Source: a virus
Length of the DNA: 64,000 bases
Virus record (IMG/VR): IMGVR_UViG_3300018080_000107
Direction: 5' to 3' (one strand)
Shown here: piece after piece, positions 9,888 to 33,438 of the stretch
Layout: every line of letters begins with the position of its first letter
Position numbering within the stretch: position 1 is the stretch's first letter
The notes under the pieces: model-generated
What the model saw: the letters and a program-made list of their open reading frames with translations, nothing else
Database searches by the model: none
What the model was told of the DNA's origin: nothing
Made by a program: the position numbers and the translations under genes

Positions 9888-9995
9888 GTAATAATTTCAA
9901 AAAAATACATAAGTCTTTTATTCACCCCCACTTAACAATAGGGAGGGAATTAATATTTCGGTTTATTTTATGCCTGGTGGACCCCCCGCCCGTTC

Positions 9996-10970
9996 ATGAA
10001 AATCCGTTAATATTTTTCCAAAAACCCTACCGGGGTATCTGTCAAGAAACTTGACACCCCAAAATCACCCAGGAAATAATAGGTCGCCCGTTCTTTCCCT
10101 GTCTCTATTCTGTACATAGCCCTTACCTTATCTACTATTTGGACAATATCTAAGCAATCGAAAGTATATTATTTTTCTTTCATATTCACCCTCATTGGCA
10201 TGAAAACGCATTAATAATCATAATCATTAACAATCTTTCATAATAGGCTGATGTCAGGATTAAAATATATTCATAGCGCCGATTCGCCCAATCATTAAAA
10301 ATCGTTAATACTTCTCTCCCTGGCATGAAATTGCATTCATACTCTACATATAGCAAATATCTATTTAATTGACGAAAAAAGGGGATTTTATCTTTTTCTT
10401 GATACTTGCCAAATAGGCAATGTGCCCCATTCTTACCTGGCCCACTACCCTATTTCTACCCTATGCCAAATAGGCAATCGCGGGAAAAGATTAAAAACCT
10501 TTCATATCCTGCCATAGTGACATATGCCCTAAACATTAACGCCCATTCATTTTGCGCCATTCTGGCAGGTAGGTAAAAATGCCCTATAGGAATTTTTTGA
10601 GTATGGAAAAATGCCATAGTGTGGCCCACAGTAGAAACCCGGAATTATTAACGTTCCTTAATATTTCTATACCTTGCTATACTGTATAGGTATATCTTAC
10701 ATGGGGGATTCTTACATATATGGAATAATGGGAAAGGTTTATTCTCTTTTGTCGTAAGGCTTTACGACGATATGAGGGATTTTCTATTAGACGCCCTATA
10801 AGGCACCATCAACGGCTTTCATGGTCGATATATGCTTAGGTATTCGCCCTATAGTGATTTGCTCTTGTGTGCTATCTCACGGCTTGCTATTTTGCTTAGT
10901 ACCGAAAATGTACCATGATTAGACAGTTTTTAGATTCTCCCCGGAAGTAATAAGATGAATACCCTTTAAT
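9996..10970. repeat. non-coding region with 10 copies of palindrome ATKAA-N6-TTMAT
   Basis: Copies start at 9996, 10200, 10226, 10259, 10294, 10325, 10490, 10535, 10647 and 10955. Confidence 0.85.
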
Positions 10971-11023
10971 GTGATGTCAAGAAAGTAGACAGTTTATATT
11001 TATAAAGTATTGCGCCCAAAAGA

Positions 11024-11554
11024 TTAAGGAAAGTTAATATTGCCCTTTCTTGCCCTTCTACTATTACAAGATTTACATATAATCCTTACGTTACTTAGTT
11101 CATAATGTCCTTTACTATCTATTCGGTCTATAGTTGGTTTATCAGTTTTTGAATCCCGCATCATAGGCTTTCCGCATATAGGGCAATCATGAATATTCTT
11201 TAACAATCCTTCTATATCCGATAATGAAAGAAGGTTAATAATACCCTTTGCGCCATAATACCTATATGATTTATGGGTTTTATCATAACACCTTCTATTA
11301 ATATCCTTTAATATAAACTTTGCCCTATTAGCCTTCATGTATTGTTTGTAATATTTAGGATTTTTATTCTTATTCTGTCTACTGTAATTAATGCGTGATT
11401 CTCTATTCCGCTCATAATAGGCTTTTTGCCATTCTTTCCTTTTGTCTTGATTCTTTACATAGTGTGCCCTTTGTGTGCATTTATCACTACAATATTTCCT
11501 TTGCTTTCCCGTCAATTCTTGCCCACAAACTATACACTTTTTCCCATTGCCCAT
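11024..11554 (-). CDS. HNH-like endonuclease with N-terminal zinc finger
   Basis: CPICG...TIDRIDSKGHYELSNVRIICKSCN; start reassigned to MGNGKK. Confidence 0.75.
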   Translation of the reverse strand: MGNGKKCIVCGQELTGKQRKYCSDKCTQRAHYVKNQDKRKEWQKAYYERNRESRINYSRQNKNKNPKYYKQYMKANRAKFILKDINRRCYDKTHKSYRYYGAKGIINLLSLSDIEGLLKNIHDCPICGKPMMRDSKTDKPTIDRIDSKGHYELSNVRIICKSCNSRRARKGNINFP

Positions 11555-11664
11555 TATTAAAATTCCTTCATAATTAATACCAGAAATAGACACATCCTCT
11601 ATATTACTAGACTATCATTTTAGCCCATCTTTACATTAAAAGACTTTCATAATTCTAAGCCTAC

Positions 11665-11691
11665 AAAAAAAGCCTACCAAAAAGGTAGGCT
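11665..11691 (-). terminator. intrinsic terminator
   Basis: AGCCTACC/GGTAGGCT hairpin with U-tract on minus strand. Confidence 0.7.
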
Positions 11692-11713
11692 ATATAGGAA
11701 ATGAAACGAAGAT

Positions 11714-12043
11714 TTAACAATCGGTAAACTCAGGAATAGCACCTAGAACTTGATAGATTAATGCGTGTTTATACATCGATGTATTTTCGGCAAGGCTATA
11801 TCCTTTGTATCCGTTCTTTCTAGCATTGCGCAACATCACATAGTACAGAAAATCGAAAACTTGCAGCGGGACATTGTTTAGATGTTCGTCAACCTTGAAA
11901 CGTTCCCGCAAATCGTCAACGCCCGATAATCCAAACATCGATAAATCGTCAGGATTCAGACAAACGCCCATCTTTTTGACAAGATTTCTGTATTTTTCGT
12001 AATGCTCTTTTGTCGTCTTTTTTGTCAATTGTGTAGTCATCAT
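11714..12043 (-). CDS. hypothetical protein
   Basis: ORF with GAAAGG RBS inside the 16-bp box. Confidence 0.7.
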   Translation of the reverse strand: MMTTQLTKKTTKEHYEKYRNLVKKMGVCLNPDDLSMFGLSGVDDLRERFKVDEHLNNVPLQVFDFLYYVMLRNARKNGYKGYSLAENTSMYKHALIYQVLGAIPEFTDC

Positions 12044-12055
12044 ATTAACGCCCTT

Positions 12056-12289
12056 TCATTCTGAAAAATCGTATTCATAAAGACTTTTCATAACTTCATA
12101 AACTGTATCGAAAGTAACACTATAGCCATCAAACTTGCTATCGCCATAATAGCGCAAGAAAGTATCAACGGCTTCCGATAGGCTATCGGCTTGCCTGATA
12201 CAATCTAAGGCAAAATGGTATAGTTCATAATCGTTATTTATCCAAAGGCTTATAGCCCAATGATGACGGGTTTGATGTCCGTTATACAT
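12056..12289 (-). CDS. hypothetical phage protein
   Basis: YNG...HWAISLWINNDYELY phage-type motif. Confidence 0.7.
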   Translation of the reverse strand: MYNGHQTRHHWAISLWINNDYELYHFALDCIRQADSLSEAVDTFLRYYGDSKFDGYSVTFDTVYEVMKSLYEYDFSE

Positions 12290-12304
12290 AGTTCAACCTT
12301 TCAT

Positions 12305-12460
12305 TTACTGATTATTTGCGATTCTTTCGGCTTCCGTAACCAGATGTGCATTTTCGCCCATTTTGGCCAATTCGGCCATTCTTTCGGCTTTCGTCGCGCC
12401 AAAATTCACAAGGCGATAGGCTTCCGCGAAAAATTCGATTCTTTCATTTTCGTTCATCAT
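12305..12460 (-). CDS. hypothetical protein
   Basis: Start reassigned to MMNENE after GAAAGG. Confidence 0.55.
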   Translation of the reverse strand: MMNENERIEFFAEAYRLVNFGATKAERMAELAKMGENAHLVTEAERIANNQ

Positions 12461-12473
12461 TTTCCCCTTTCGA

Positions 12474-12569
12474 TTAAAAAGAAAAGGCTTCAAGCATACT
12501 GAAACCGACATAAGCAAAGTAAACGGCTTTGATTGTCAAGATGATGCAAACGGCTTTAAACTTACTCAT
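12474..12569 (-). CDS. 31-aa hydrophobic peptide, copy A
   Basis: MSKFKAVCIILTIKAVYFAYVGFSMLEAFSF; GAAAGG RBS; class I promoter upstream. Confidence 0.7.
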   Translation of the reverse strand: MSKFKAVCIILTIKAVYFAYVGFSMLEAFSF

Positions 12570-12604
12570 TGTTTTTTACCTTTCGTTTTTATTGCCCTCT
12601 ATAG

Positions 12605-12622
12605 GTAGCCTTGAAAACAAGG
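12605..12622 (-). promoter_or_regulatory. class I promoter motif CCTTGTWTNNAGGCTAC (representative copy)
   Basis: Minus-strand copies also at 13477, 14559, 15609, 15905, 16700, 17636, 18232, 18755, 19292, 19846, 20728, 21226, 25049, 26389, 26945, 28242, 30003, 30830, 32090, 32414 and 33314; plus-strand copies at 16043, 21277, 33372, 35709, 37559 and 42394. Confidence 0.85.
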
Positions 12623-12659
12623 CATATACAGATTAAAATCAATTAATCTTTTTTGCTTC

Positions 12660-12755
12660 CTAAAAATCGAAGGCTTCAATCATACTGATGGCCACATAAC
12701 CGAAATAGATAGCCTTGATAGTCAAGATGGCGATGACGGCTTTAAACTTACTCAT
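12660..12755 (-). CDS. 31-aa hydrophobic peptide, copy B
   Basis: MSKFKAVIAILTIKAIYFGYVAISMIEAFDF; 23/31 identical to copy A. Confidence 0.7.
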   Translation of the reverse strand: MSKFKAVIAILTIKAIYFGYVAISMIEAFDF

Positions 12756-12800
12756 TTTGTTACCTTTCGTTTTTCGGCTTGTTTGTTACTCGACTATCTA

Positions 12801-12828
12801 AGTATACGATGGTATGCAGGATGCGCAA
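12801..12828 (-). promoter_or_regulatory. host sigma70-type promoter
   Basis: TTGCGC-N16-TATACT followed by leader TAGATAGTCGAGTAACAA shared with the 13939 promoter. Confidence 0.6.
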
Positions 12829-12870
12829 GGTTTATTTTCCCCGATTCTCGGTTTTTCCTAAACCCTTTAT

Positions 12871-13446
12871 TTATACAATCTTATCGGATTTTCGCCGATT
12901 ACATTTTGCACAAAGTAATTGAACGTTTTCGGGATTGTCGTTTCCACCTTTGCTATACGGTAAGATGTGGTCATATTGTAGGCTTTCATTTGTGCCACAT
13001 TTTACACATCGACCATTAGAACGGACAAAAGCTATTTTTTTAGACAATTCCGGGATTTCTCGCCTATCCTCTTGTGTTTTATGATTAAATGAACGATGAT
13101 TAATATTTAGCCATTCTATAGCTTCTTGCAATTCTGTTTTATCGGTTTCAGGTTTTATCGATTGTCTGATTTCCCTTAATACCCTTTCGGATTCCTCTTG
13201 TGTCTCATAAATTAAACCATCTTCATTTTTCGGCCTTTCGGCTTTTTCCTTGTCTTTATCGTATGCAAGGGAAACAAGGATAGATGTCAGTATTCCCCAC
13301 AATAACCAAAACATCAGATGTGATATATCAAAGCATACTGATGCAAACCCAACCCAAAAGATAGATATTAAACCGAACCATAGAAAACGCCATGCAAGCT
13401 TTACGGCTTGCCCTATAGCCTTGATAGTATTAATAGTGTTTTCCAT
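12871..13446 (-). CDS. membrane-anchored HNH endonuclease
   Basis: Two N-terminal TMs; CVKCG...QYDHILPYSKGG...NVQLLCAKCNRRKS. Confidence 0.85.
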   Translation of the reverse strand: MENTINTIKAIGQAVKLAWRFLWFGLISIFWVGFASVCFDISHLMFWLLWGILTSILVSLAYDKDKEKAERPKNEDGLIYETQEESERVLREIRQSIKPETDKTELQEAIEWLNINHRSFNHKTQEDRREIPELSKKIAFVRSNGRCVKCGTNESLQYDHILPYSKGGNDNPENVQLLCAKCNRRKSDKIV

Positions 13447-13537
13447 TTTTTGCCTTTCGTTTTTACCCTTCTATTAATACCCTTCAAAACAAGGCTATAC
13501 AGATGAAAACTTATTAATCTTTCTCGGCTTGCCCATA

Positions 13538-13566
13538 GGGGAAAGGCTTAGCGCCCTTCCCCCTTT
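13538..13566. terminator. putative terminator hairpin
   Basis: GGGGAAAGG/CCCTTCCCC inverted repeat downstream of 13576..13893. Confidence 0.5.
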
Positions 13567-13575
13567 GCCCTTGTT

Positions 13576-13893
13576 TTAGCTTGCAACCTTGCCAATGCTT
13601 GCCCTTGCCCTTTTAAGGCTATCCGAAACGGCTTGTTGTGTTGTATTCAAGGCTTCCGCGATAGCCTTCTGATTCAATCCTTCCCGATAGTACAATTGAA
13701 CGATGGTTTTTTGCTTTTCGGTAAGGGTATCGGAATAGTCCAGAATGATGGCCGTTTCAATCCTTCCCGTCATCAATTTCCTGATGTCTTCATCGTCTAC
13801 CCTTCCCGATTCCATCGACGGGATAAGGCTTTCGACGGCTTCACAAAGGCTTTTGCAATTGTTTCTCTTTTCGCATGTTTCACAGTTAGTCAT
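13576..13893 (-). CDS. sigma70 region-4 HTH protein with N-terminal Cys cluster
   Basis: LTEKQKTIVQLYYREGLNQKAIAEALNTTQQAVSDSLKRA; CETC...C...C. Confidence 0.8.
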   Translation of the reverse strand: MTNCETCEKRNNCKSLCEAVESLIPSMESGRVDDEDIRKLMTGRIETAIILDYSDTLTEKQKTIVQLYYREGLNQKAIAEALNTTQQAVSDSLKRARASIGKVAS

Positions 13894-13938
13894 GATTCGC
13901 CCTTTCGTTTTTGTTTCGGCTTGTTACTCGACTATCTA

Positions 13939-13967
13939 ATACTACGATGCTATGCTCATATCGTCAA
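13939..13967 (-). promoter_or_regulatory. host sigma70-type promoter
   Basis: TTGACG-N17-TAGTAT upstream of the HTH gene. Confidence 0.65.
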
Positions 13968-14001
13968 GGAAGATTAAAGACTTTTAATAATTGCCCTTTC
14001 C

Positions 14002-14517
14002 CTATGCTGGCGCATAGGTATAATCGGGAGAAAAATCGATACAGTAAACGGCTTTGATTTCCCCATCATTGTCAACGTCAAGGGTAATGTTTCCCCCGTG
14101 TCTATCGCCGATGTCGATTCCTACGGCGTCCATCTTTTCCTGGCAGTATCGGGAAAGATTAAAACCCTTAAATCTAACGTCCATACTAGAAATGCCCTTA
14201 TCATAGCAATAATCGGTAAGTGTAGTATTGCCACAATGTGACATCACGATGCCGAACCTTTCCACGTTTTCGCCGGAAACCTTTACGATAACCTTAAAAA
14301 CGCCAATAGGTTTAGGGGAAACGCCCGATGGTTCTGCTTGTTTCAAAAGCTTATATTCGGCCATTGCTTCACAGTATGCAGCGGAAAGGGTTTTCTGTTT
14401 CAATACCTTGACGCCAATAGAATCAGTAAGCTTGAAATACATAGAATAAAGACCACTACCCATCATCGGCTTATGAGTAACAATAAATTCGGCTTTCATG
14501 TTTTCGTAATTAGTCAT
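14002..14517 (-). CDS. minimal protein kinase-like protein, paralog 1
   Basis: GSGLYS loop, GVKV, helix-C Glu, DRHGGN catalytic loop, IDF. Confidence 0.75.
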   Translation of the reverse strand: MTNYENMKAEFIVTHKPMMGSGLYSMYFKLTDSIGVKVLKQKTLSAAYCEAMAEYKLLKQAEPSGVSPKPIGVFKVIVKVSGENVERFGIVMSHCGNTTLTDYCYDKGISSMDVRFKGFNLSRYCQEKMDAVGIDIGDRHGGNITLDVDNDGEIKAVYCIDFSPDYTYAPA

Positions 14518-14858
14518 GATTCAACCTTTCGTTATTGTTTTTGTTTCGCCCTTCATAGGTAGCCTTGAATACAAGGCTATACAGAAAATTAAATCGTTTT
14601 AATATTTCTCTCATATCACGCATCTATATATAATAGTATAGGCTTTTCCCCTATGCAAATATCGTTCCCGACACCATCCGATTGTCCAAATAATAGACAA
14701 AAAAACCTGAAATAATAGCTTTCTCTGTGAAGCCTTCTAAGCCGTTTTAACGGCTTTAAGCCTTTATATGTATATCTACCCTCATTTGTCGCGCATCGAC
14801 GTTATCCGTCTAAACCCTTACTATATATAGACTTATGACGACGTATTTTGAAAACCCG

Positions 14859-14874
14859 TGCAAGAATCGTGCCA
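14859..14874 (-). promoter_or_regulatory. sigma54 (-24/-12) promoter consensus
   Basis: TGGCACGATTCTTGCA, a perfect match. Confidence 0.6.
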
Positions 14875-14885
14875 GACGCCCTTTT

Positions 14886-15013
14886 ATTAAACCTTTTTAA
14901 TATTTCAAGCCGATTTATTAAATTGCTTTCATTTTCAATCTATACTATTGCTATAGACTTTTTTATTAAATTGCCTTCATAATTGTAGACTTGGATTATT
15001 AAGATTCTTTCAT
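14886..15013. repeat. four ATKAA-N6-TTMAT boxes
   Basis: Copies at 14886, 14917, 14965 and 14998. Confidence 0.85.
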
Positions 15014-15028
15014 AATTCGGACACCATC

Positions 15029-15056
15029 AAAAAAAGCCTACCGAATAGATAGGCTT
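15029..15056 (-). terminator. intrinsic terminator
   Basis: AAAGCCTA/TAGGCTTT hairpin, similar to the 11665 terminator. Confidence 0.65.
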
Positions 15057-15100
15057 TGTAGTTAATTAGTTTTCTACTATTACTGATTTTTAATCATTGC

Positions 15101-15116
15101 TGGAACGGTTTTTGCT
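15101..15116 (+). promoter_or_regulatory. sigma54-like promoter
   Basis: TGGAACGGTTTTTGCT (GG-N10-GC). Confidence 0.45.
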
Positions 15117-15148
15117 ACCCCATAGGCTTTCCCCTTTATGAAAATTGT

Positions 15149-15427
15149 TTAACTTACTAATTCAAGCCTTTCAGATTCTTCATTGTAATCGATTCCCAAT
15201 ATGCGCATAATATCGCATGATACATCTAGGTCACTACCCAAAACATCGATGCCGTATTTATCGCCATCTAACGGCCAAGCCGTAACATCGATGGTTACAC
15301 AAGGAAAAGGATAGATAGCCTTCATTTTGTAGGCTTCAAGGCGATACTTTCGCCCTTCATACTCGAAAACCTTGCCATTAACAGATAGAAAAACTTCATT
15401 GTAATCGGAAAGAAGATTAAAAGACAT
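15149..15427 (-). CDS. hypothetical protein
   Basis: Start and stop both overlap 16-bp boxes. Confidence 0.7.
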   Translation of the reverse strand: MSFNLLSDYNEVFLSVNGKVFEYEGRKYRLEAYKMKAIYPFPCVTIDVTAWPLDGDKYGIDVLGSDLDVSCDIMRILGIDYNEESERLELVS

Positions 15428-15442
15428 TAATTTTACCTTTCG

Positions 15443-15577
15443 TTACTGCCAAGTTTTGATGGCGTTTCTGTTGTTTTCTTTTCGTCCGATATCGGATACT
15501 TTAGCAAAGCCGATTCGGATACCTTCCGCCACTATAGCAAAGGTAAACAGGATACCGATAGTTGCAAATATTGTCAT
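15443..15577 (-). CDS. 44-aa membrane peptide
   Basis: MTIFATIGILFTFAIVAEG...KTWQ; GAAAGG RBS; class I promoter. Confidence 0.6.
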   Translation of the reverse strand: MTIFATIGILFTFAIVAEGIRIGFAKVSDIGRKENNRNAIKTWQ

Positions 15578-15645
15578 GATTCAGCCTTTCAGTTATCGCC
15601 CTCTATAGATAGCCTTCAATACAAGGCGATACAGATGAAAAAGCT

Positions 15646-15873
15646 TTAATATTTCATGATTCCAGTAAAAAGCCTTTGTCCAATAAGATGACAATCTTCG
15701 GGCAATGGCGTAAACGTCCAATTAGCGCCAGGAAGCCGAAAAGCTTGCCCATCGATGTATGCTGTACAATGCTTTGTAGTAAGCTTTATTTGTCCTTCCC
15801 TGCCCATTGCGCCATCATTCTTGGCCGTTACTACCCTTCCGATTATCGCATCGATTCTTACGGTTTTAAGCAT
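15646..15873 (-). CDS. hypothetical protein
   Basis: Own class I promoter and RBS. Confidence 0.65.
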   Translation of the reverse strand: MLKTVRIDAIIGRVVTAKNDGAMGREGQIKLTTKHCTAYIDGQAFRLPGANWTFTPLPEDCHLIGQRLFTGIMKY

Positions 15874-16196
15874 TATTTAGCCTTTCAGTTATCGCCCTTC
15901 ATTGTAAGCCTTCAATACAAGGCGATACAGATGAAAATGGTTTAATCTTTCTATGTTTTGCCCTTCTAATATAGATAGTATAGAAGCCTATTCAAATGGT
16001 ATGCCAGATTTTCAATTATGAAAGAAATTTAATCTGCATAGGCTTTGTTTTCAAGGTTACTGATGACGGGAAAAAATAAAGGGTAAAAAAAGGTAGTTTG
16101 AAAAAGAAACATGTAAAATTTCCCTATGGGTAAAAAATCCCTATATGGAAAAATAGGTCGGTAAGAAATACCTGTTTGAAATCCATACATGGGAAA

Positions 16197-16385
16197 ATGA
16201 AGATTCTTTAATGATTAAGATTCTTTCATTATGAATAGATTTTAATGTGAAAGGATTTTCATGAAAAAAAGTTAATGAAGAAATTTTCATGAAAGAAATT
16301 TCATGAAGGGATTTTAATCCTTAGAGCAGAAAAAAACCGGCGTCGGAGTCATTTTCCTTAGAGCCGGTTAATATTGGCGTCGGAG
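16197..16385. repeat. tandem array of 8 ATKAA-N6-TTMAT boxes plus two AGAGC-N11-GGCGTCGGAG motifs
   Basis: Boxes at 16197, 16214, 16231, 16247 (GTGAA variant), 16261, 16275, 16289 and 16303; bipartite motifs at 16323 and 16360. Confidence 0.85.
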
Positions 16386-16466
16386 TCATTTTTTGATTCC
16401 GGCGTTTTTTTGTTTAGCAAGTAGGGGAACGGCTTTTCAGCCGCCCCCCTCAAACCTGGAGAGTTT

Positions 16467-16655
16467 TCAAATTTTCACAATATAAAGGTCGTTTCCGTTC
16501 TTTTGAATCCTAAAGCCATTCTGGCTTGCGAATGCCCGATGTGCTGGCGACACGTCAAAGAACCTTGAAAGCTTCTCGAAACGCTTGCTGCCTATCTTGT
16601 CCATTGCTTCCGTCAATGCGTCCATTACATTACTCGTCAGTTCTGAAGTCAACAT
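16467..16655 (-). CDS. hypothetical protein
   Basis: Start reassigned to MLTSE after GAAAGG. Confidence 0.6.
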   Translation of the reverse strand: MLTSELTSNVMDALTEAMDKIGSKRFEKLSRFFDVSPAHRAFASQNGFRIQKNGNDLYIVKI

Positions 16656-16744
16656 TGCTTTGCCTTTCTGTTTTAGGTTTTTACTTTCGTCTCTCATAAG
16701 TAGCCTTCTATACAAGGTCTGAATTATTAATCTTCTTTAATCTA

Positions 16745-17173
16745 TCAACACTTTTCCAAAAGTGAATCTTCTTTCATCTTTCGGATTTTCGCCTTATACT
16801 TTCGTGTTGCCTTGCGAACCTTTTGCCGCCCCTTATCGGTCTTATGATAGTCCCTAACGGCTTTTCGTTGCCTATCCGCACCACAAGCCTTACAATACTT
16901 CTTTCGTCCGTCACGCGCCCACATAGGCTCCCCACATTGCAAACAATCCTTGATGACGCCCCCTCTTTTCCTTTGCACCATCAAAACCTCTACAATGCCC
17001 CGTAAAGCCTTTAGACGCTCAATAGGTCTTAGGGTACACGCACGCCACGCATCAAGCTCATGCGTTCTTGTATAGGCGCTACAGGCAAGCTTAGGTCGTG
17101 CTTCGATATCGATACCAAAAAGTAGCCCATTTTTTTGTGCCGTTACTCCACCGTTCAATTTAACAGTCTTCAT
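16745..17173 (-). CDS. zinc-finger basic protein
   Basis: CLQCG...YCKAC and basic tail. Confidence 0.65.
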   Translation of the reverse strand: MKTVKLNGGVTAQKNGLLFGIDIEARPKLACSAYTRTHELDAWRACTLRPIERLKALRGIVEVLMVQRKRGGVIKDCLQCGEPMWARDGRKKYCKACGADRQRKAVRDYHKTDKGRQKVRKATRKYKAKIRKMKEDSLLEKC

Positions 17174-17234
17174 CTTTATAAACCTCTTTTTTGTTGTCAG
17201 GAAAATTATTAACCGCCATTAATGTGAACGCTTG

Positions 17235-17408
17235 TTAATCGTCGGCAAGCTTAACCAGTATAGCCGTCCAAATAATCGCCCAAGGAATTGACACCGCAAA
17301 CATTGCAAGCCGTTGCCAAAAGGTGTCTGGCTCAAGCAAAAGCCAAGGTGCCATGATTCCACCGATAAGCAAACACAAAAAGATAATCACTCTAAGCAAA
17401 TCAGACAT
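17235..17408 (-). CDS. 57-aa two-TM membrane protein, paralog of 25445..25735
   Basis: MSDLLRVIIF...PWLLLEPDTFWQRLA...; bracketed by boxes. Confidence 0.65.
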   Translation of the reverse strand: MSDLLRVIIFLCLLIGGIMAPWLLLEPDTFWQRLAMFAVSIPWAIIWTAILVKLADD

Positions 17409-17422
17409 TTTATTAATCCTTA

Positions 17423-17599
17423 TTAATTTTTCTTTTCAACCTTGTACCAAGCCAACTGAATGCCGCCCGTCTTAGTACAATAGCGGACTTCATCAGCACT
17501 CTTAAGCTTATTGGTTATAGTTCTACTGTCAACAATCTTGATGGCTTCCGCAAGCACTTCCTCAGCGAATGCTTTCACTTTCAGTTCTTTTTTAGTCAT
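17423..17599 (-). CDS. 58-aa hypothetical protein
   Basis: MTKKELKVKAFAEE...; class I promoter upstream. Confidence 0.6.
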   Translation of the reverse strand: MTKKELKVKAFAEEVLAEAIKIVDSRTITNKLKSADEVRYCTKTGGIQLAWYKVEKKN

Positions 17600-17662
17600 G
17601 ATGTTTCCTTTGTTAAAGTTTTTTGCTCTCTATAAGTAACCTCAAATACAAGGCCATATAGA

Positions 17663-18202
17663 TTAATCTTCTCTCACACAACAGTATGATGGTGAAAAGT
17701 CGATACACCAAACCTTTGATATTGCCCCAAAAGCGTCAGTTTCTACGATGATGTTTCCGGCGTGTCTATCCCTAAGATTCAATCCGCAAGCCTTCATTTT
17801 GTCGTAAATATAATCGCAAAGCTCAGTTTCAGCAAACTCGATATCATCAATGCTGTAATCATCTTCATCCCAATAACCTGAATCAAATTCTTCATTTTCC
17901 CTTTTCCACTGATAAAGCGACATCCCCGGACAATGCGTCATCAAGATGCCGATACGCACTATCGGCGTGCCATCAAGATGTGCCCCGTCTTTAACCTTGA
18001 CAATGCCAATGCCCTTTGGAGTGATTCCGCTAGATTCAGCCTGCTTAATATAACTGTACTCTTCAACGGCTTCATCAAAAGCCTCATCAAGTTCTTCATT
18101 CTTCAGAACCTTGATTCCGATAGTTTCAGACACCATATAATAGGTGCTATAAAGACCACTACCAACCGATGTTTTGTGAGTTACATTAAGAGTTACTTCC
18201 AT
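17663..18202 (-). CDS. minimal protein kinase-like protein, paralog 2
   Basis: GSGLYS, GIKV, EEY, DRHAGN, WCIDFSP; aligns end to end with 14002..14517. Confidence 0.75.
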   Translation of the reverse strand: MEVTLNVTHKTSVGSGLYSTYYMVSETIGIKVLKNEELDEAFDEAVEEYSYIKQAESSGITPKGIGIVKVKDGAHLDGTPIVRIGILMTHCPGMSLYQWKRENEEFDSGYWDEDDYSIDDIEFAETELCDYIYDKMKACGLNLRDRHAGNIIVETDAFGAISKVWCIDFSPSYCCVRED

Positions 18203-18343
18203 TCTTTCCTCCATTAATATCACCCTCATCAGTAGCCTTTAATACAAGGTCATCTATATGAAAATTCTTTAATCTTGGGTCCAAAAAAAAGGCGCACCAA
18301 CAAGGCACGCCACAAAACGAAAGGTCATAACGATGAATTCTGT

Positions 18344-18724
18344 TTAATCTTCCTCTACTTCAATCTCCATAAGGTTAGTAGTATCTACACCGAAAGCTTC
18401 AAGATGTTCTTTAAGGTCTGCAAGCTCATCGGCAAGTATCGTGCCGTTTATATAGTCTTCATCACTATCGCACTCGATGCCCCACAATCCGCCAGAACGT
18501 AAGGTTTCTATCCGCCTATCGCCCCGTTCATTAGTGGGATAAGATACGGTAGCCTCTACCCACATACCAAGCATCCACACGTCGCCATTATGAAATTGCT
18601 TTAATCTTTCTTCGTTGCTCGCATTGTGCTCATCCGTGAAAGTCTCGTCATACTCCAGATAAGACAAGTCGGGAAATTCGTCAACAACCTTCACAAACTT
18701 CAGTTTATCAATCGTCGGTTTCAT
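18344..18724 (-). CDS. hypothetical acidic protein
   Basis: Own class I promoter; stop codon in box. Confidence 0.7.
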   Translation of the reverse strand: MKPTIDKLKFVKVVDEFPDLSYLEYDETFTDEHNASNEERLKQFHNGDVWMLGMWVEATVSYPTNERGDRRIETLRSGGLWGIECDSDEDYINGTILADELADLKEHLEAFGVDTTNLMEIEVEED

Positions 18725-18791
18725 TGCTTCGCCTTTCTTTATTAGCCTCTATAGTTAGCCTCTAATACAAGGTCAGAAGTATTAAAATCCC

Positions 18792-19262
18792 TTAATCTAC
18801 GCACTGTCCGATGAAAACGTCACAAGCATCCCCTTCCCCGCAAGTAATCCAACATCCAATACTTTCAGCTTCTTTATCTAATGCTTCCCGAAATATCTCA
18901 TCAAGCTCAGCTTCCCATTCTTCCACATTACTACACGCCCACGGCATGTAAAATTTACCCGATGGATACAAGGAAAATACCGTGCCCAAGAAAACCATTT
19001 TAGACTTATTTCCGTCATAGTCTTCTATTACTTCTGATTCATCCAAAGCCTCTACGATTTTTTCCTTATACAGTATCCCATTATTAATAAGCTCTAATAC
19101 CTCTACTCTTTTTTGGTACTCATCTGTTTCTTGCACATCATAAAGCTTATCACCGATTGCCTTTAGATTCTGTACAATATCCACCGTCCGCCCATAGCGC
19201 ACGGCATAAAGTCCCGTGCTTACCACAATACTGTTTCTGTTAAGTTCTTCACTTGTAATCAT
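18792..19262 (-). CDS. hypothetical acidic protein
   Basis: Own class I promoter; stop codon in box. Confidence 0.7.
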   Translation of the reverse strand: MITSEELNRNSIVVSTGLYAVRYGRTVDIVQNLKAIGDKLYDVQETDEYQKRVEVLELINNGILYKEKIVEALDESEVIEDYDGNKSKMVFLGTVFSLYPSGKFYMPWACSNVEEWEAELDEIFREALDKEAESIGCWITCGEGDACDVFIGQCVD

Positions 19263-19328
19263 GTTTCACCTTTCAGTTATCGCCCTCATCAGTAACCTTC
19301 AAAACAAGGTGATATACATTAAAATTCT

Positions 19329-19814
19329 TTAAGGAATCGGGACAACATCCCCGCCGCAATTGTGCCTATACTTGCCGCCACGACGATAAGCCTTAACCAT
19401 ATTGGTATGTTTACGCTTTGTAATCGGCATTACAGTTTCGCACTTCATACAAACAGCCCTATAATCCCTTGCATTGTGCTTACAAGCCATACTATGGCAC
19501 CTTTCGGCATTGCCGCCTATCCGCCTATGCATAGCCTTCCATCGCCTGTTGTGACCGTTTCCAGGACCAACAAGAAGATGTGCTATTTCGTGCAGAACCG
19601 TGTTTCTGAAATTGCTTTCATTTTCCGCCCTTCTGAAAATCTCATTGCTCAGTTGAACCATAAACAGTTTATGCTTTGCTTTACCGGCAGTAGTCCGAAG
19701 TCTCGTATTGACACTAAAAACGATACGCCCAAGCTCCCCTTGATAGATGGGAAACCGCATCATAAGTTCCGTTCTAATTTCCTTTGCCCTTGTAATCATT
19801 TCTCTTGCGTTCAT
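19329..19814 (-). CDS. SprT-like zinc metalloprotease
   Basis: RLRTTAG, VLHEIAHL, GHNRRWK, C-terminal CxxC. Confidence 0.85.
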   Translation of the reverse strand: MNAREMITRAKEIRTELMMRFPIYQGELGRIVFSVNTRLRTTAGKAKHKLFMVQLSNEIFRRAENESNFRNTVLHEIAHLLVGPGNGHNRRWKAMHRRIGGNAERCHSMACKHNARDYRAVCMKCETVMPITKRKHTNMVKAYRRGGKYRHNCGGDVVPIP

Positions 19815-19879
19815 AGTTTGCCCTTTCAGTTATTGCTCTCTATAGGACACCTTGAATACAAGGTCATACATATTAAAAC

Positions 19880-20104
19880 TTATTCATAATCAATCTCAGC
19901 ACCAAAGACGGAAGCCGGTATATTATCGGGATTCTGACGTTTCATCCATGATGGCGGATTGTCAAGCTTCACCTTAACACCGAGATAACCATCTTCCTCA
20001 AAATAACTTACAACCTTTCCCGTGCCAAGTCCGTTTAGTAGAACCTTAACAATTGAACCGATAGCCGGTACGCCACTTTTGCCAGACCATTTAATATCTT
20101 TCAT
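19880..20104 (-). CDS. hypothetical protein
   Basis: Bracketed by boxes. Confidence 0.65.
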   Translation of the reverse strand: MKDIKWSGKSGVPAIGSIVKVLLNGLGTGKVVSYFEEDGYLGVKVKLDNPPSWMKRQNPDNIPASVFGAEIDYE

Positions 20105-20117
20105 GATAAACCTTTCA

Positions 20118-20279
20118 TTAAATAGGATTGAACGTAGGATTAACTTGCGTCAATGGCGCTATCGTCCATTCTGAATCAATATTCATTTCAGCCCACATTG
20201 ATGCAACCTCCATACAATCCCAAGGTCCATAAAAAGTTGCACCGTCAACCATATTCCCAACAATCAAAACGTAAACCAT
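20118..20279 (-). CDS. 53-aa hypothetical protein
   Basis: MVYVLIVGNMVDGATFYGPW...; GGAG RBS inside box. Confidence 0.6.
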   Translation of the reverse strand: MVYVLIVGNMVDGATFYGPWDCMEVASMWAEMNIDSEWTIAPLTQVNPTFNPI

Positions 20280-20290
20280 ATTAATCTCCA

Positions 20291-20695
20291 TTAACCTATG
20301 ACGTTATCAATGCTTCCATTCTCACAATGCCACGTTTCACAATCATCAATCTCCATTCCGATTTTTGTGAAAGTTCTTTCAGTAATCAGCCCATCCCTTT
20401 CGCAAGCCTTCAAGGCTTCCCGCCAAAGCTCGATAATTTCCCAATGGGTACGCCCTTCCCCGCCACACTCGGCAGCCTCATGAATGCGATTACACATTTC
20501 ACGCTTTTCAGGACAAGCCGAGTAGCCCAAGCCACTTATGAAAGATTCTTCATAAGCCTGAAAGTATTCTGAATTATAGAAGTCCTCAAGATTATGAATC
20601 CCTTCATCATTCTGCTTGCGTACAAGCTTCAGCCTTTCGGCTTTCTCGTCAATCGTCACGTCAACAGGACAAAATTCAATCGTTACAGTTTTCAT
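20291..20695 (-). CDS. hypothetical protein
   Basis: Start reassigned to MKTVT; own class I promoter. Confidence 0.65.
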   Translation of the reverse strand: MKTVTIEFCPVDVTIDEKAERLKLVRKQNDEGIHNLEDFYNSEYFQAYEESFISGLGYSACPEKREMCNRIHEAAECGGEGRTHWEIIELWREALKACERDGLITERTFTKIGMEIDDCETWHCENGSIDNVIG

Positions 20696-20756
20696 TGTTT
20701 CACCTTTCGTTATTGCCGCCCTCATCTATAGCCTGCAATACAAGGCGACATACAGA

Positions 20757-21191
20757 TTAATCTTTCTTAATTTTGTATATGATGTAAGCGCCCTTCTTTT
20801 CCGCCACAACCTCAAAAGGCAGTACACGATTTACTTGATAAGTTCCGGTTTTCGTCCATCCTTCTTTCTTGATGTCTCGCCTAACTGTAATGTATGCAGT
20901 TCCACCAACAACAAGGTAATCATGAATGCCCTTTAATACACCGTGAACCTCATCGTCAGTTATGACATTCAATACATAATTACAAACAACTGTATCAAAT
21001 TGCCCTTCCGGCTTCTCAGGACGATGGAACGGGTCAAAGCCTGCAATACCAAGCTCATCGGCGTCAAAGCCTTTCCCACAACCATAGTCCAATACACGCC
21101 CCGTCAGAAGTCCTCTATCCCTTAGAAGTCGCATAGGGACACTAAGGGTTTTTCTCGTGATTGCTGTTTTGTGTGCTTTGTCATTCTTCAT
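20757..21191 (-). CDS. class I SAM-dependent methyltransferase
   Basis: VLDYGCGKGFD...FDP...FDTVVCNYVLNVI. Confidence 0.8.
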   Translation of the reverse strand: MKNDKAHKTAITRKTLSVPMRLLRDRGLLTGRVLDYGCGKGFDADELGIAGFDPFHRPEKPEGQFDTVVCNYVLNVITDDEVHGVLKGIHDYLVVGGTAYITVRRDIKKEGWTKTGTYQVNRVLPFEVVAEKKGAYIIYKIKKD

Positions 21192-21362
21192 TAGTTTGCC
21201 TTTCATTTGTTTTCCGCCCTCATTGGTAGCCTGAAATACAAGGTATTGTGAAAAAAGATTAACTGTATATCCTAAGTCTTGTATTTGAGGCTACTTATGA
21301 ACGGGGAGTTATCCCCACCTATTCTATCTTATATAACAAGCGAAAATAGGAGGATTTGCCAG

Positions 21363-21530
21363 ACGAAAATGAGTTAATGATTACGAAAGTTTAATGATTA
21401 ATGTTTTTTAATGAATGAATTTTAATGAAGATTCTTTAATGTGAAAATCGCTTAATGTATGATGTGATTTTCATAGAGCCAGAAGGTTTCGGCGTCGAAG
21501 GCTAAGAGCGGCCAATATCCGGCGTCGAAG
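21363..21530. repeat. tandem array of about 7 ATKAA-N6-TTMAT-like boxes plus two AGAGC-N11-GGCGTCGAAG motifs
   Basis: Exact boxes at 21397, 21411 and 21425; near matches at 21363, 21380, 21441 and 21459; bipartite motifs at 21475 and 21505. Confidence 0.8.
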
Positions 21531-21577
21531 CCTTTTTTTGTTGACCCGACATTAAGAAATTTTAATCTAATGTGCAT

Positions 21578-21650
21578 AAAAAAACCCACCGCAACAAGCG
21601 ATGGGTTCTGGTTTGTCCCTGGTCGGGTCGCTACGCTGCGACCCGCCATG
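21578..21650 (-). terminator. terminator and hairpins after the MazG operon
   Basis: AACCCA/TGGGTT hairpin with A-run and CGGGTCGC/GCGACCCG hairpin. Confidence 0.55.
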
Positions 21651-33272: not shown

Positions 33273-33313
33273 TTTGAACTCCTTGGTAAAAGTTTTGTTT
33301 TCGCCTTCTATAG

Positions 33314-33389
33314 TACGCCTCGAATACAAGGCCATACACAAGATTAATCTTTTTTAATCTATATGTCCACAACTTGTACAGAGGGCTAC
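33314..33389. promoter_or_regulatory. divergent class I promoters sharing one 16-bp box at the strand switch
   Basis: Minus copy 33314-33331, box 33343-33358, plus copy 33372-33389. Confidence 0.75.
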
Positions 33390-33438
33390 TTATGACGGAC
33401 GAAAATTTTTACTGACGTATTTTATCACAAAGGAGTAT

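Follow-up and report, generated by a model that had tools for sequence, protein, structure and literature searches.

The window, that is, the whole 64,000-nucleotide (64-kb) stretch analysed here, was taken from the IMG/VR virus record IMGVR_UViG_3300018080_000107 and belongs to an uncultured phage with a genome of ~166 kb. Public contigs, the longest of 165,953 bp, also encode its methyltransferase-like protein. A DNA search of the cultured-phage collection gave no relative of the window, and two public assemblies equalled it over 15–20 kb with no strain-level variation. The source assemblies are ENA ERZ27256796 and JGI 3300017991. Genes lie on the minus strand from position 1 to ~33 kb and on the plus strand beyond, a pattern that the GC skew tracks. 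Two non-coding modules, near 16 kb (locus 1) and 21 kb (locus 2), lie within the minus arm. Around both modules, ORFs and called genes lie without exception on the minus strand, and neither of the two public assemblies has a gene called inside the modules. Their neighbours are small ORFs without assigned function, a MazG-like gene and the methyltransferase-like gene. Pfam and PHROG scans of the neighbouring ORFs were uninformative and no candidate operator-binding protein emerged from them; a homologue search with the 75-aa gene adjoining locus 1 found none. Among the neighbouring genes inspected, no initiator, replication or terminase gene adjoined either module.

The surrounding region has several features of its own. 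The methyltransferase-like gene (20757–21206, minus strand) encodes a small SAM-methyltransferase-like protein of 149 aa that has 447 homologues and is very widespread in large-phage contigs, including some of 205–444 kb. Two HNH endonuclease genes lie within the early block of small genes (11024–11593 and 12871–13446, minus strand). The promoter-leaders of two adjacent small genes (15575–15655 and 15871–15951) share 88% identity over 81 nt. A JGI contig of the same phage stops at about position 15457, ~120 bp short of these repeats, which are a possible cause of the contig break.

The promoter motif of this region, here called class I, has a 17-nt core, CTTGTWTTNNAGGNTAC, followed by ..TATAGAGGG or ..TGATGAGGG. 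The window contains 17 matches to CTTGTWTTNNAGGNTAC against 0.03 expected. Apart from the copies at 16044 and 21278, which belong to the modules, all matches head ORFs, lie 20–45 nt ahead of the start codons and share the orientation of the gene. The motif precedes most of the small genes of the minus arm and flips with gene orientation. On these grounds of position and orientation, we accept it as the putative early promoter of the phage. Its start region (..CTATAGAGGG) resembles, by our own reading, the promoters of T7 and SP6.

A 16-bp palindrome, ATKAA-N6-TTMAT (hereafter the box), occurs in 66 exact copies in the window compared with ~1 in shuffled sequences, and is found at a fixed distance of ~8–10 bp upstream of most class I promoter cores. 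Because of this excess and the fixed distance, we read the box as the putative operator of the class I promoters. The box-dense early block spans 9996–21566, with locus 2 at its edge, and more than 50 further box sites exist outside the arrays described below.

Locus 1 begins with an exact box (16018–16033), placed 9–10 bp ahead of a plus-strand class I promoter (16044–16071; core 16044–16060, one mismatch) that is directed away from all neighbouring genes. Over core and start region, this promoter agrees by hand count with the gene-driving copy at 19308 at ~24 of 27 positions. An A-rich leader without an ORF follows (16063–16196), with a purine fraction of 0.67 and a GC skew of +0.33 on the plus strand. 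The leader runs into an array of eight boxes (16197–16318) with a GC content of 21%, in which successive boxes are spaced by 17, 17, 16, 14, 14, 14 and 14 bp. Two motif units come next on the plus strand, at 16320–16348 and 16357–16385, each of the form CTTAGAGC-N11-GGCGTCGGAG. The second half of unit 2 forms the 5′ arm of a plus-sense intrinsic terminator (16376–16411), which continues into a T-run. A generic terminator scan returned the same element as a 13-pair hairpin (16376–16406) with a T-run on the plus strand, and its fold has a predicted energy of −22.3 kcal/mol (z −4.7). The functional unit at locus 1 thus extends past 16385, to ~16411. On the other side of the terminator, a strong gene-sense hairpin without a U-run lies 3′ of the upstream 82-aa gene (16418–16458, minus strand; −27.1 kcal/mol, z −3.7).

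Locus 2 has the same parts in the same order. Its first box (21248–21263) is common to two back-to-back promoters, one at 21242 on the minus strand and one at 21278 on the plus strand. The latter (21278–21305; core 21278–21294, no mismatches) is directed away from the neighbouring genes. Its leader (21297–21366, plus strand) comprises a 5′ hairpin and a GGAGG stretch. The array (21367–21474; GC 21%) consists of four exact or relaxed boxes at 21397, 21411, 21425 and 21441 and three degenerate ones, assigned by eye, at ~21367, 21381 and 21459. Tandem Repeats Finder reported a period of 14 here and at locus 1. The two motif units, both on the plus strand, are CATAGAGC-N11-GGCGTCGAAG (21472–21500) and CTAAGAGC-N11-GGCGTCGAAG (21502–21530). 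At this locus, the second halves of both units, together with their flanks, pair with each other in a 17-bp hairpin that leads into T7, forming a plus-sense terminator (21481–21539). Its fold has a predicted energy of −31.3 kcal/mol (z −4.2), which none of 200 shuffled sequences equalled. Facing the module is the gene-sense intrinsic terminator of the MazG-like gene (21574–21609, minus strand; hairpin and U7; z −5.9 for the folded segment). A further box (21551–21566) sits between the two facing terminators, an arrangement that recurs in one of the relatives described below (L022).

These observations bear out what a sequence-only reading of the window had described: class I promoters opposing all their neighbours, tandem box arrays with a 14-bp period, and exactly two copies of AGAGC-N11-GGCGTCGRAG per locus (16323 and 16360; 21475 and 21505, all on the plus strand), with constant spacing and differing spacer sequences. 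The DNA 3′ of both promoters is likewise free of ORFs as claimed, with no plus-sense ORF of at least 40 aa and only ORFs of 20–32 aa that are not credible. The same reading held that the motif occurs nowhere else, which is true of the 64-kb window, the stretch scanned. Here, AGAGC-N11-GGCGTCG has exactly four matches against 0.05 expected, all at the two loci and not scattered, and none of 100 shuffles reached four. Within these units the flanks are conserved and the spacers have diverged.

Three other parts of the window resemble the modules in some respects. An ORF-free stretch of ~570 nt in the early block (14580–15148) carries boxes at 14886, 14917, 14965 and 14998, spaced by 31–48 bp, and a bidirectional-looking terminator (15028–15066); it contains no plus-strand class I promoter and no AGAGC pair. 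At the far edge of the box-dense block, a long ORF-poor region (9900–10700) has sigma-70-like hexamers and a loose cluster of boxes at 10200–10325, 10490, 10535 and 10647, and may be an immediate-early control region. Finally, divergent class I promoters with common boxes lie at 33330 (minus) and 33373 (plus), within 33300–33400, exactly at the strand switch and the minimum of the cumulative GC skew. This pair has the back-to-back design seen at locus 2, yet both of its arms drive ORFs. The region is an alternative candidate origin region.

Both modules are closed by terminators and stand out in base composition. A plus-sense intrinsic terminator, composed of a GC-rich hairpin and a U-run and either formed from the motif pair or adjoining it, ends all four modules known from the window and two relatives, and in three of the four (locus 2, L022 and L023) a gene-sense terminator of the upstream gene faces the module. 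By orientation, each unit is convergent with its upstream gene and divergent from the early genes downstream; in gene sense, each module heads a sub-block of early genes and is divergent from the first promoter of that sub-block. GC skew inside the two units of the window is +0.31 and +0.23, compared with −0.15 to −0.34 in the flanks, and reaches +0.54 and +0.57 in the arrays. In this genome G-richness marks the sense strand, so that within the modules the plus strand behaves as sense. GC skew had been proposed as a check on the twin loci: the local flip is present inside the modules, and the cumulative skew does not turn at 16 or 21 kb. It turns once, at 33 kb, the point at which a divergent promoter pair marks the switch in gene orientation.

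The transcripts predicted from the plus-sense promoters appear to be non-coding. Unlike the other class I copies, those at 16044 and 21278 are followed by no credible ORF. A chain of mini-ORFs overlapping at ATGA in the array was considered and rejected: boxes of the form ATGAA-N6-TTAAT automatically read as four-codon ORFs, L022 has a period of 16–17, and start codons are not retained. A minus-strand peptide across the motif at locus 1 (MTPTP...SK) was also discarded, as the other copies are without start codons or ribosome-binding sites, the frames differ between copies, and a terminator precedes the region. Of the four leaders, three contain a GGAGG stretch and then a start-stop ORF of 2–4 codons just ahead of the array (at 21340–21377 of the window, ~640–655 of L022 and ~1455–1475 of L023); locus 1 has GGTCGG instead.

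Searches for known RNAs gave no assignment. Rfam 15 had no match in the window at the gathering score, and permissive Rfam scans of both loci yielded only matches far below it (best E-values 0.007–0.14), the look-alikes being generic AU-rich sRNAs or terminators. Searches for tRNA and tmRNA found none. Fold z-scores of whole units cannot separate a role as RNA from one as DNA, because arrays of palindromes fold well in any case.

Relatives of the modules were reached through the methyltransferase-like gene adjoining locus 2, using a protein search that returned the 447 homologues. The closest contigs, all from metagenomic phages, are L022, with 80% identity in the methyltransferase-like protein, and L023 together with L024–L027, with 66%; L023 has further early genes in common with the window. 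Upstream of the orthologous methyltransferase-like gene, L022 and L023 each have an ORF-free gap of 420–450 nt with the same architecture: minus promoter, shared box, plus promoter, leader, array and two AGAGC units. The array comprises 5–6 boxes with a period of 16–17 in L022 and 3–4 boxes in L023. The L022 module ends in an 8-bp GC hairpin with U8, and that of L023 has an 8-bp GC hairpin with a U-rich tail. The skew flip recurs as well, at +0.17 versus −0.26 and −0.40 in L022, and at +0.11 versus −0.21 and −0.31 in L023 up to its terminator, beyond which the skew reverts. Each phage has a different gene on the far side, and the non-coding sequence of the module has diverged so far as to be barely alignable. 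The module is, within the clade, a conserved element whose sequence drifts.

The distribution of the system is narrow. Promoter, box and module occur only in contigs at 66% identity or above (L022 and L023–L027) and were absent from 19 IMG/VR loci, 80 metagenome loci, L028 and L029; homologues at 62–64% identity have no gap upstream. No paired WAGAGC signature turned up in ~550 kb of other loci. Scans of IMG/VR for the double motif, for the relatives' version of it and for a box-plus-promoter pattern had no matches, and a scan of GTDB genomes returned one chance match without any other feature of the system. As the distant homologues have no promoter, box or pair, the system is confined to a narrow clade. 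A variant contig from another sample, L024, is identical to L023 through the last array box (L024 1–50; L023 1328–1377) and then diverges completely, which reflects either a recombination breakpoint at the box or an assembly branch.

Conservation in relatives, on which the sequence-only reading had made its proposal depend, is seen in two of them, both upstream of the orthologous methyltransferase-like gene. The promoters look real and the modules are non-coding and kept in relatives, which agrees with the premise shared by the three roles proposed in that reading: transcription-primed origins, DNA-entry stop signals, and terminase or nicking sites.

Comparison of the eight motif units, from four modules in three lineages, separates an invariant part from a variable one. 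Common to all are (C)TWAGAGC(C) and the 11-nt distance; the GG that follows is found in 6/8, and the units of the relatives also retain ATTT as the last nucleotides of the spacer. By contrast with these shared parts, the motif's second half is lineage-specific, being GGCGTCGRAG in all four units of the window, GGTGCCAA in both units of L022, and GCGGTCGGAG and CCCTCCACTAG in L023. Both CGGCGUCG in the window and UGGUGCCA in L022 are self-complementary as RNA if G-U pairs are allowed. Between CGGCGUCG and UGGUGCCA all four pair positions are kept, with changes from C-G to U-A, from G-U to G-C and from C-G to U-G and one pair unchanged; we read these as one double compensatory change and two wobble swaps, on the thin covariation basis of four module copies in three lineages. 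The non-Watson-Crick positions in this pairing are G-U on the plus sense only. The minimum-energy fold of L022 uses the second-half pairing and then a separate canonical terminator. This pattern of substitutions supports a plus-sense RNA hairpin formed by the second halves.

L023 is an exception, in which the terminator hairpin lies between the array and the AGAGC pair and the second halves do not pair. Since the terminator precedes the pair here and the second halves are unpaired, the AGAGC pair cannot be terminator material alone, and so the invariant CTWAGAGC has a role beyond what the hairpin explains. Several readings of the units were set aside. Pairing of AGAGC with GCGUC inside one unit was unsupported once L022 and L023 were compared, and by our reading the spacings misfit sigma-70, sigma-54 and ECF-type promoters. 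The reverse complement of CTAAGAGC is GCTCTTAG, and 5/8 units contain the core of boxA, the antitermination site of lambda and rrn operons (GCUCUUA). In the modules, this core (GCTCTTA) is present on the minus strand only, downstream of a gene-sense terminator and without a promoter, which is inconsistent with a boxA/nut site. As neither its strand nor its position suits such a site, and the G-U pairs and the skew favour the other strand, the match was judged a coincidence.

The intrinsic terminator, the facing terminator, the flip in composition and the array of the promoter's own operator lead us to favour a transcription unit as the first explanation. The modules would thus be discrete, conserved, non-coding plus-sense transcription units, the body of each being an array of the phage's putative promoter operator. 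Such a unit probably controls early gene expression or starts replication, and its layout suggests a regulatory RNA or an operator hub. Our leading interpretation, held tentatively and at somewhat less than an even chance, is that each module is an autonomous transcription unit acting as a regulatory hub for a dimeric factor that reads the operator.

In this model, the class I promoter would start an RNA of ~345 nt at locus 1 and ~240 nt at locus 2. The RNA would traverse the leader, 7–8 operator copies and the two CTWAGAGC-N11 units, and would stop at the intrinsic terminator, whose hairpin arms are the lineage-specific second halves of the units. Placed where each sub-block of early genes begins, the array would gather or titrate the putative dimeric factor and serve as a sink or threshold device. 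Bound factor may block RNA polymerase crossing the array or be displaced by it, and passage or blockage of the polymerase would couple the level of the factor to RNA output. From the sequence we infer that the units are transcribed and that a protein binds the boxes, and the same grading applies to any regulatory effect. Literature searches found no direct equivalent of the whole architecture. The closest parallels for a hub are the iteron control locus incA of P1 and the operator arrays of global regulators, namely the omega heptads of pSM19035 and the KorB sites of RK2. In these, as proposed here, an extra cluster of sites for a promoter-acting protein is used as a sink or control locus; they are, however, plasmid systems with a known binding protein, and their arrays are not the body of a promoter-to-terminator unit.

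The alternative with most weight, although we consider it unlikely, is that the modules serve as a pair of replication origins that transcription activates or primes. A class I RNA would enter the AT-rich array, and an R-loop or opened DNA would start synthesis, with the AGAGC units marking the RNA-to-DNA transition or the loading point of helicase or primase. Phage origins offer analogues: the four dyad-symmetric iterons of the lambda origin depend on transcription close by, the primary origin of T7 combines promoters 1.1A and 1.1B with an AT-rich stretch, and oriF and oriG of T4 pair a middle promoter with an unwinding element. The modules share with these a phage promoter reading into an AT-rich stretch and, with lambda, tandem dyad-symmetric protein sites. 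The 21% GC of the arrays, the strongly G-rich RNA-like strand (skew of +0.54 and +0.57), the presence of two dispersed copies and the conservation of the architecture in relatives all fit an origin, and in L023 the RNA would stop at a hairpin immediately 5′ of the AGAGC pair, a position suited to the end of a primer. However, the "iterons" are here a general promoter operator with more than 50 other sites, and neither an initiator nor a replication gene adjoins the modules. Cumulative skew turns at 33 kb alone; the lack of a turn at 16 and 21 kb is weak evidence against an origin, because skew tracks transcription in this genome. Moreover, tight intrinsic terminators and facing terminators typify a closed RNA gene and are, to our knowledge, not a feature of known transcription-primed origins.

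It is improbable that the modules are genome-end, packaging or staged DNA-entry signals, a reading in which the motif pairs, 5.15 kb apart, could bound a terminal repeat. At the T7 concatemer junction, promoters OR and OL are found with the short-repeat arrays SRR and SRL and a polymerase pause site, so that a phage-specific promoter is followed by short-repeat arrays and a specific element, as here; the T5 injection-stop signal, a repeat-rich non-coding locus, is a second analogue. An end signal would be in keeping with the restriction of an identical, equally oriented bipartite motif to two loci of the window, with the position of locus 2 at the edge of the early block (9996–21566), with the different far-side gene in each relative, and with the divergence of L024 exactly at the last array box. 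In T7, these elements map to the genome ends and point in the same direction as the genes. Against an end signal here, the public assemblies of this phage cross both loci without break or variation. By our arithmetic, the ENA contig and the scanned record apparently begin at different points, so that the assemblies give no sign of fixed ends, and no terminase gene lies close by. Relatives do not retain the second half of the motif, a divergence that would fit co-evolving recognition and gives no positive support.

A decoy or anti-defence RNA, in which a repeat RNA made abundantly early in infection would sequester a host nuclease, RNA-binding protein or toxin, much as antitoxin RNAs with repeat arrays (ToxI type) or RNA anti-CRISPRs do, is quite improbable. 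A repeat-rich, non-coding unit that is driven by an early promoter, closed by a terminator and located in a block of small early genes would be apt for such a purpose. But the repeat period of 14–17 nt is not kept between relatives (14 in the window, 16–17 in L022), the repeats are a DNA operator palindrome, which points to a role at the DNA level, and Rfam has no match. Type III antitoxins (ToxI) have repeats of ~34–45 nt followed by the toxin gene; in the modules, the period is 14–17 nt and neither is followed by a same-sense gene. Very improbable, finally, is an origin of the modules as non-functional by-products, that is, inverted relic promoters and slippage-expanded operator repeats left by cassette recombination in a mosaic early region: promoters and box repeats are everywhere in the block, array period and copy number vary, and the L024 breakpoint falls at a box, but the part order, promoter orientation, paired CTWAGAGC-N11 and plus-sense terminator are kept in three lineages, and the unit flanks are conserved while the spacers have diverged.

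The reading as a regulatory transcription unit has a more specific form, for which the analogy lies outside phages. In baculoviruses, the early transactivator IE-1 binds the homologous regions (hr), which consist of arrayed imperfect palindromes and act as enhancers and putative origins. Like them, the modules are dispersed, non-coding, dyad-symmetric arrays tied to the early promoters of a large DNA virus, and a dual role in transcription and replication is plausible. The hr regions differ in belonging to a eukaryotic virus and in lacking the order of promoter, array, paired motif and terminator, and factor binding is putative here. By this analogy, the modules could be a phage counterpart of hr, in which an early promoter transcribes dispersed operator arrays into a terminator-closed RNA while the factor gates transcription or is stripped by it; we regard this as rather unlikely.

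New in this analysis are the closure of the modules by terminators, the skew flip inside them, their conservation in two relatives and the change in the hairpin arms that preserves pairing. In large uncultured phages, hardly any regulatory elements or origins have been mapped. The present system is unusually legible, with a single promoter type, a single operator and two dedicated non-coding units that are made of this operator and conserved in relatives, and it offers concrete targets for assays in the 16-bp box, the CTWAGAGC-N11 unit and the predicted RNAs of ~240–345 nt. As regulatory elements, the modules would provide a clear example from nature of decoy site arrays wired into a transcription unit that times the viral programme; as origins, they would be the first ones defined in this phage clade. 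Should the hr-like reading be true, the phage would carry a built-in timer or threshold for the early-to-middle switch, possibly with a replication trigger at the same sites.
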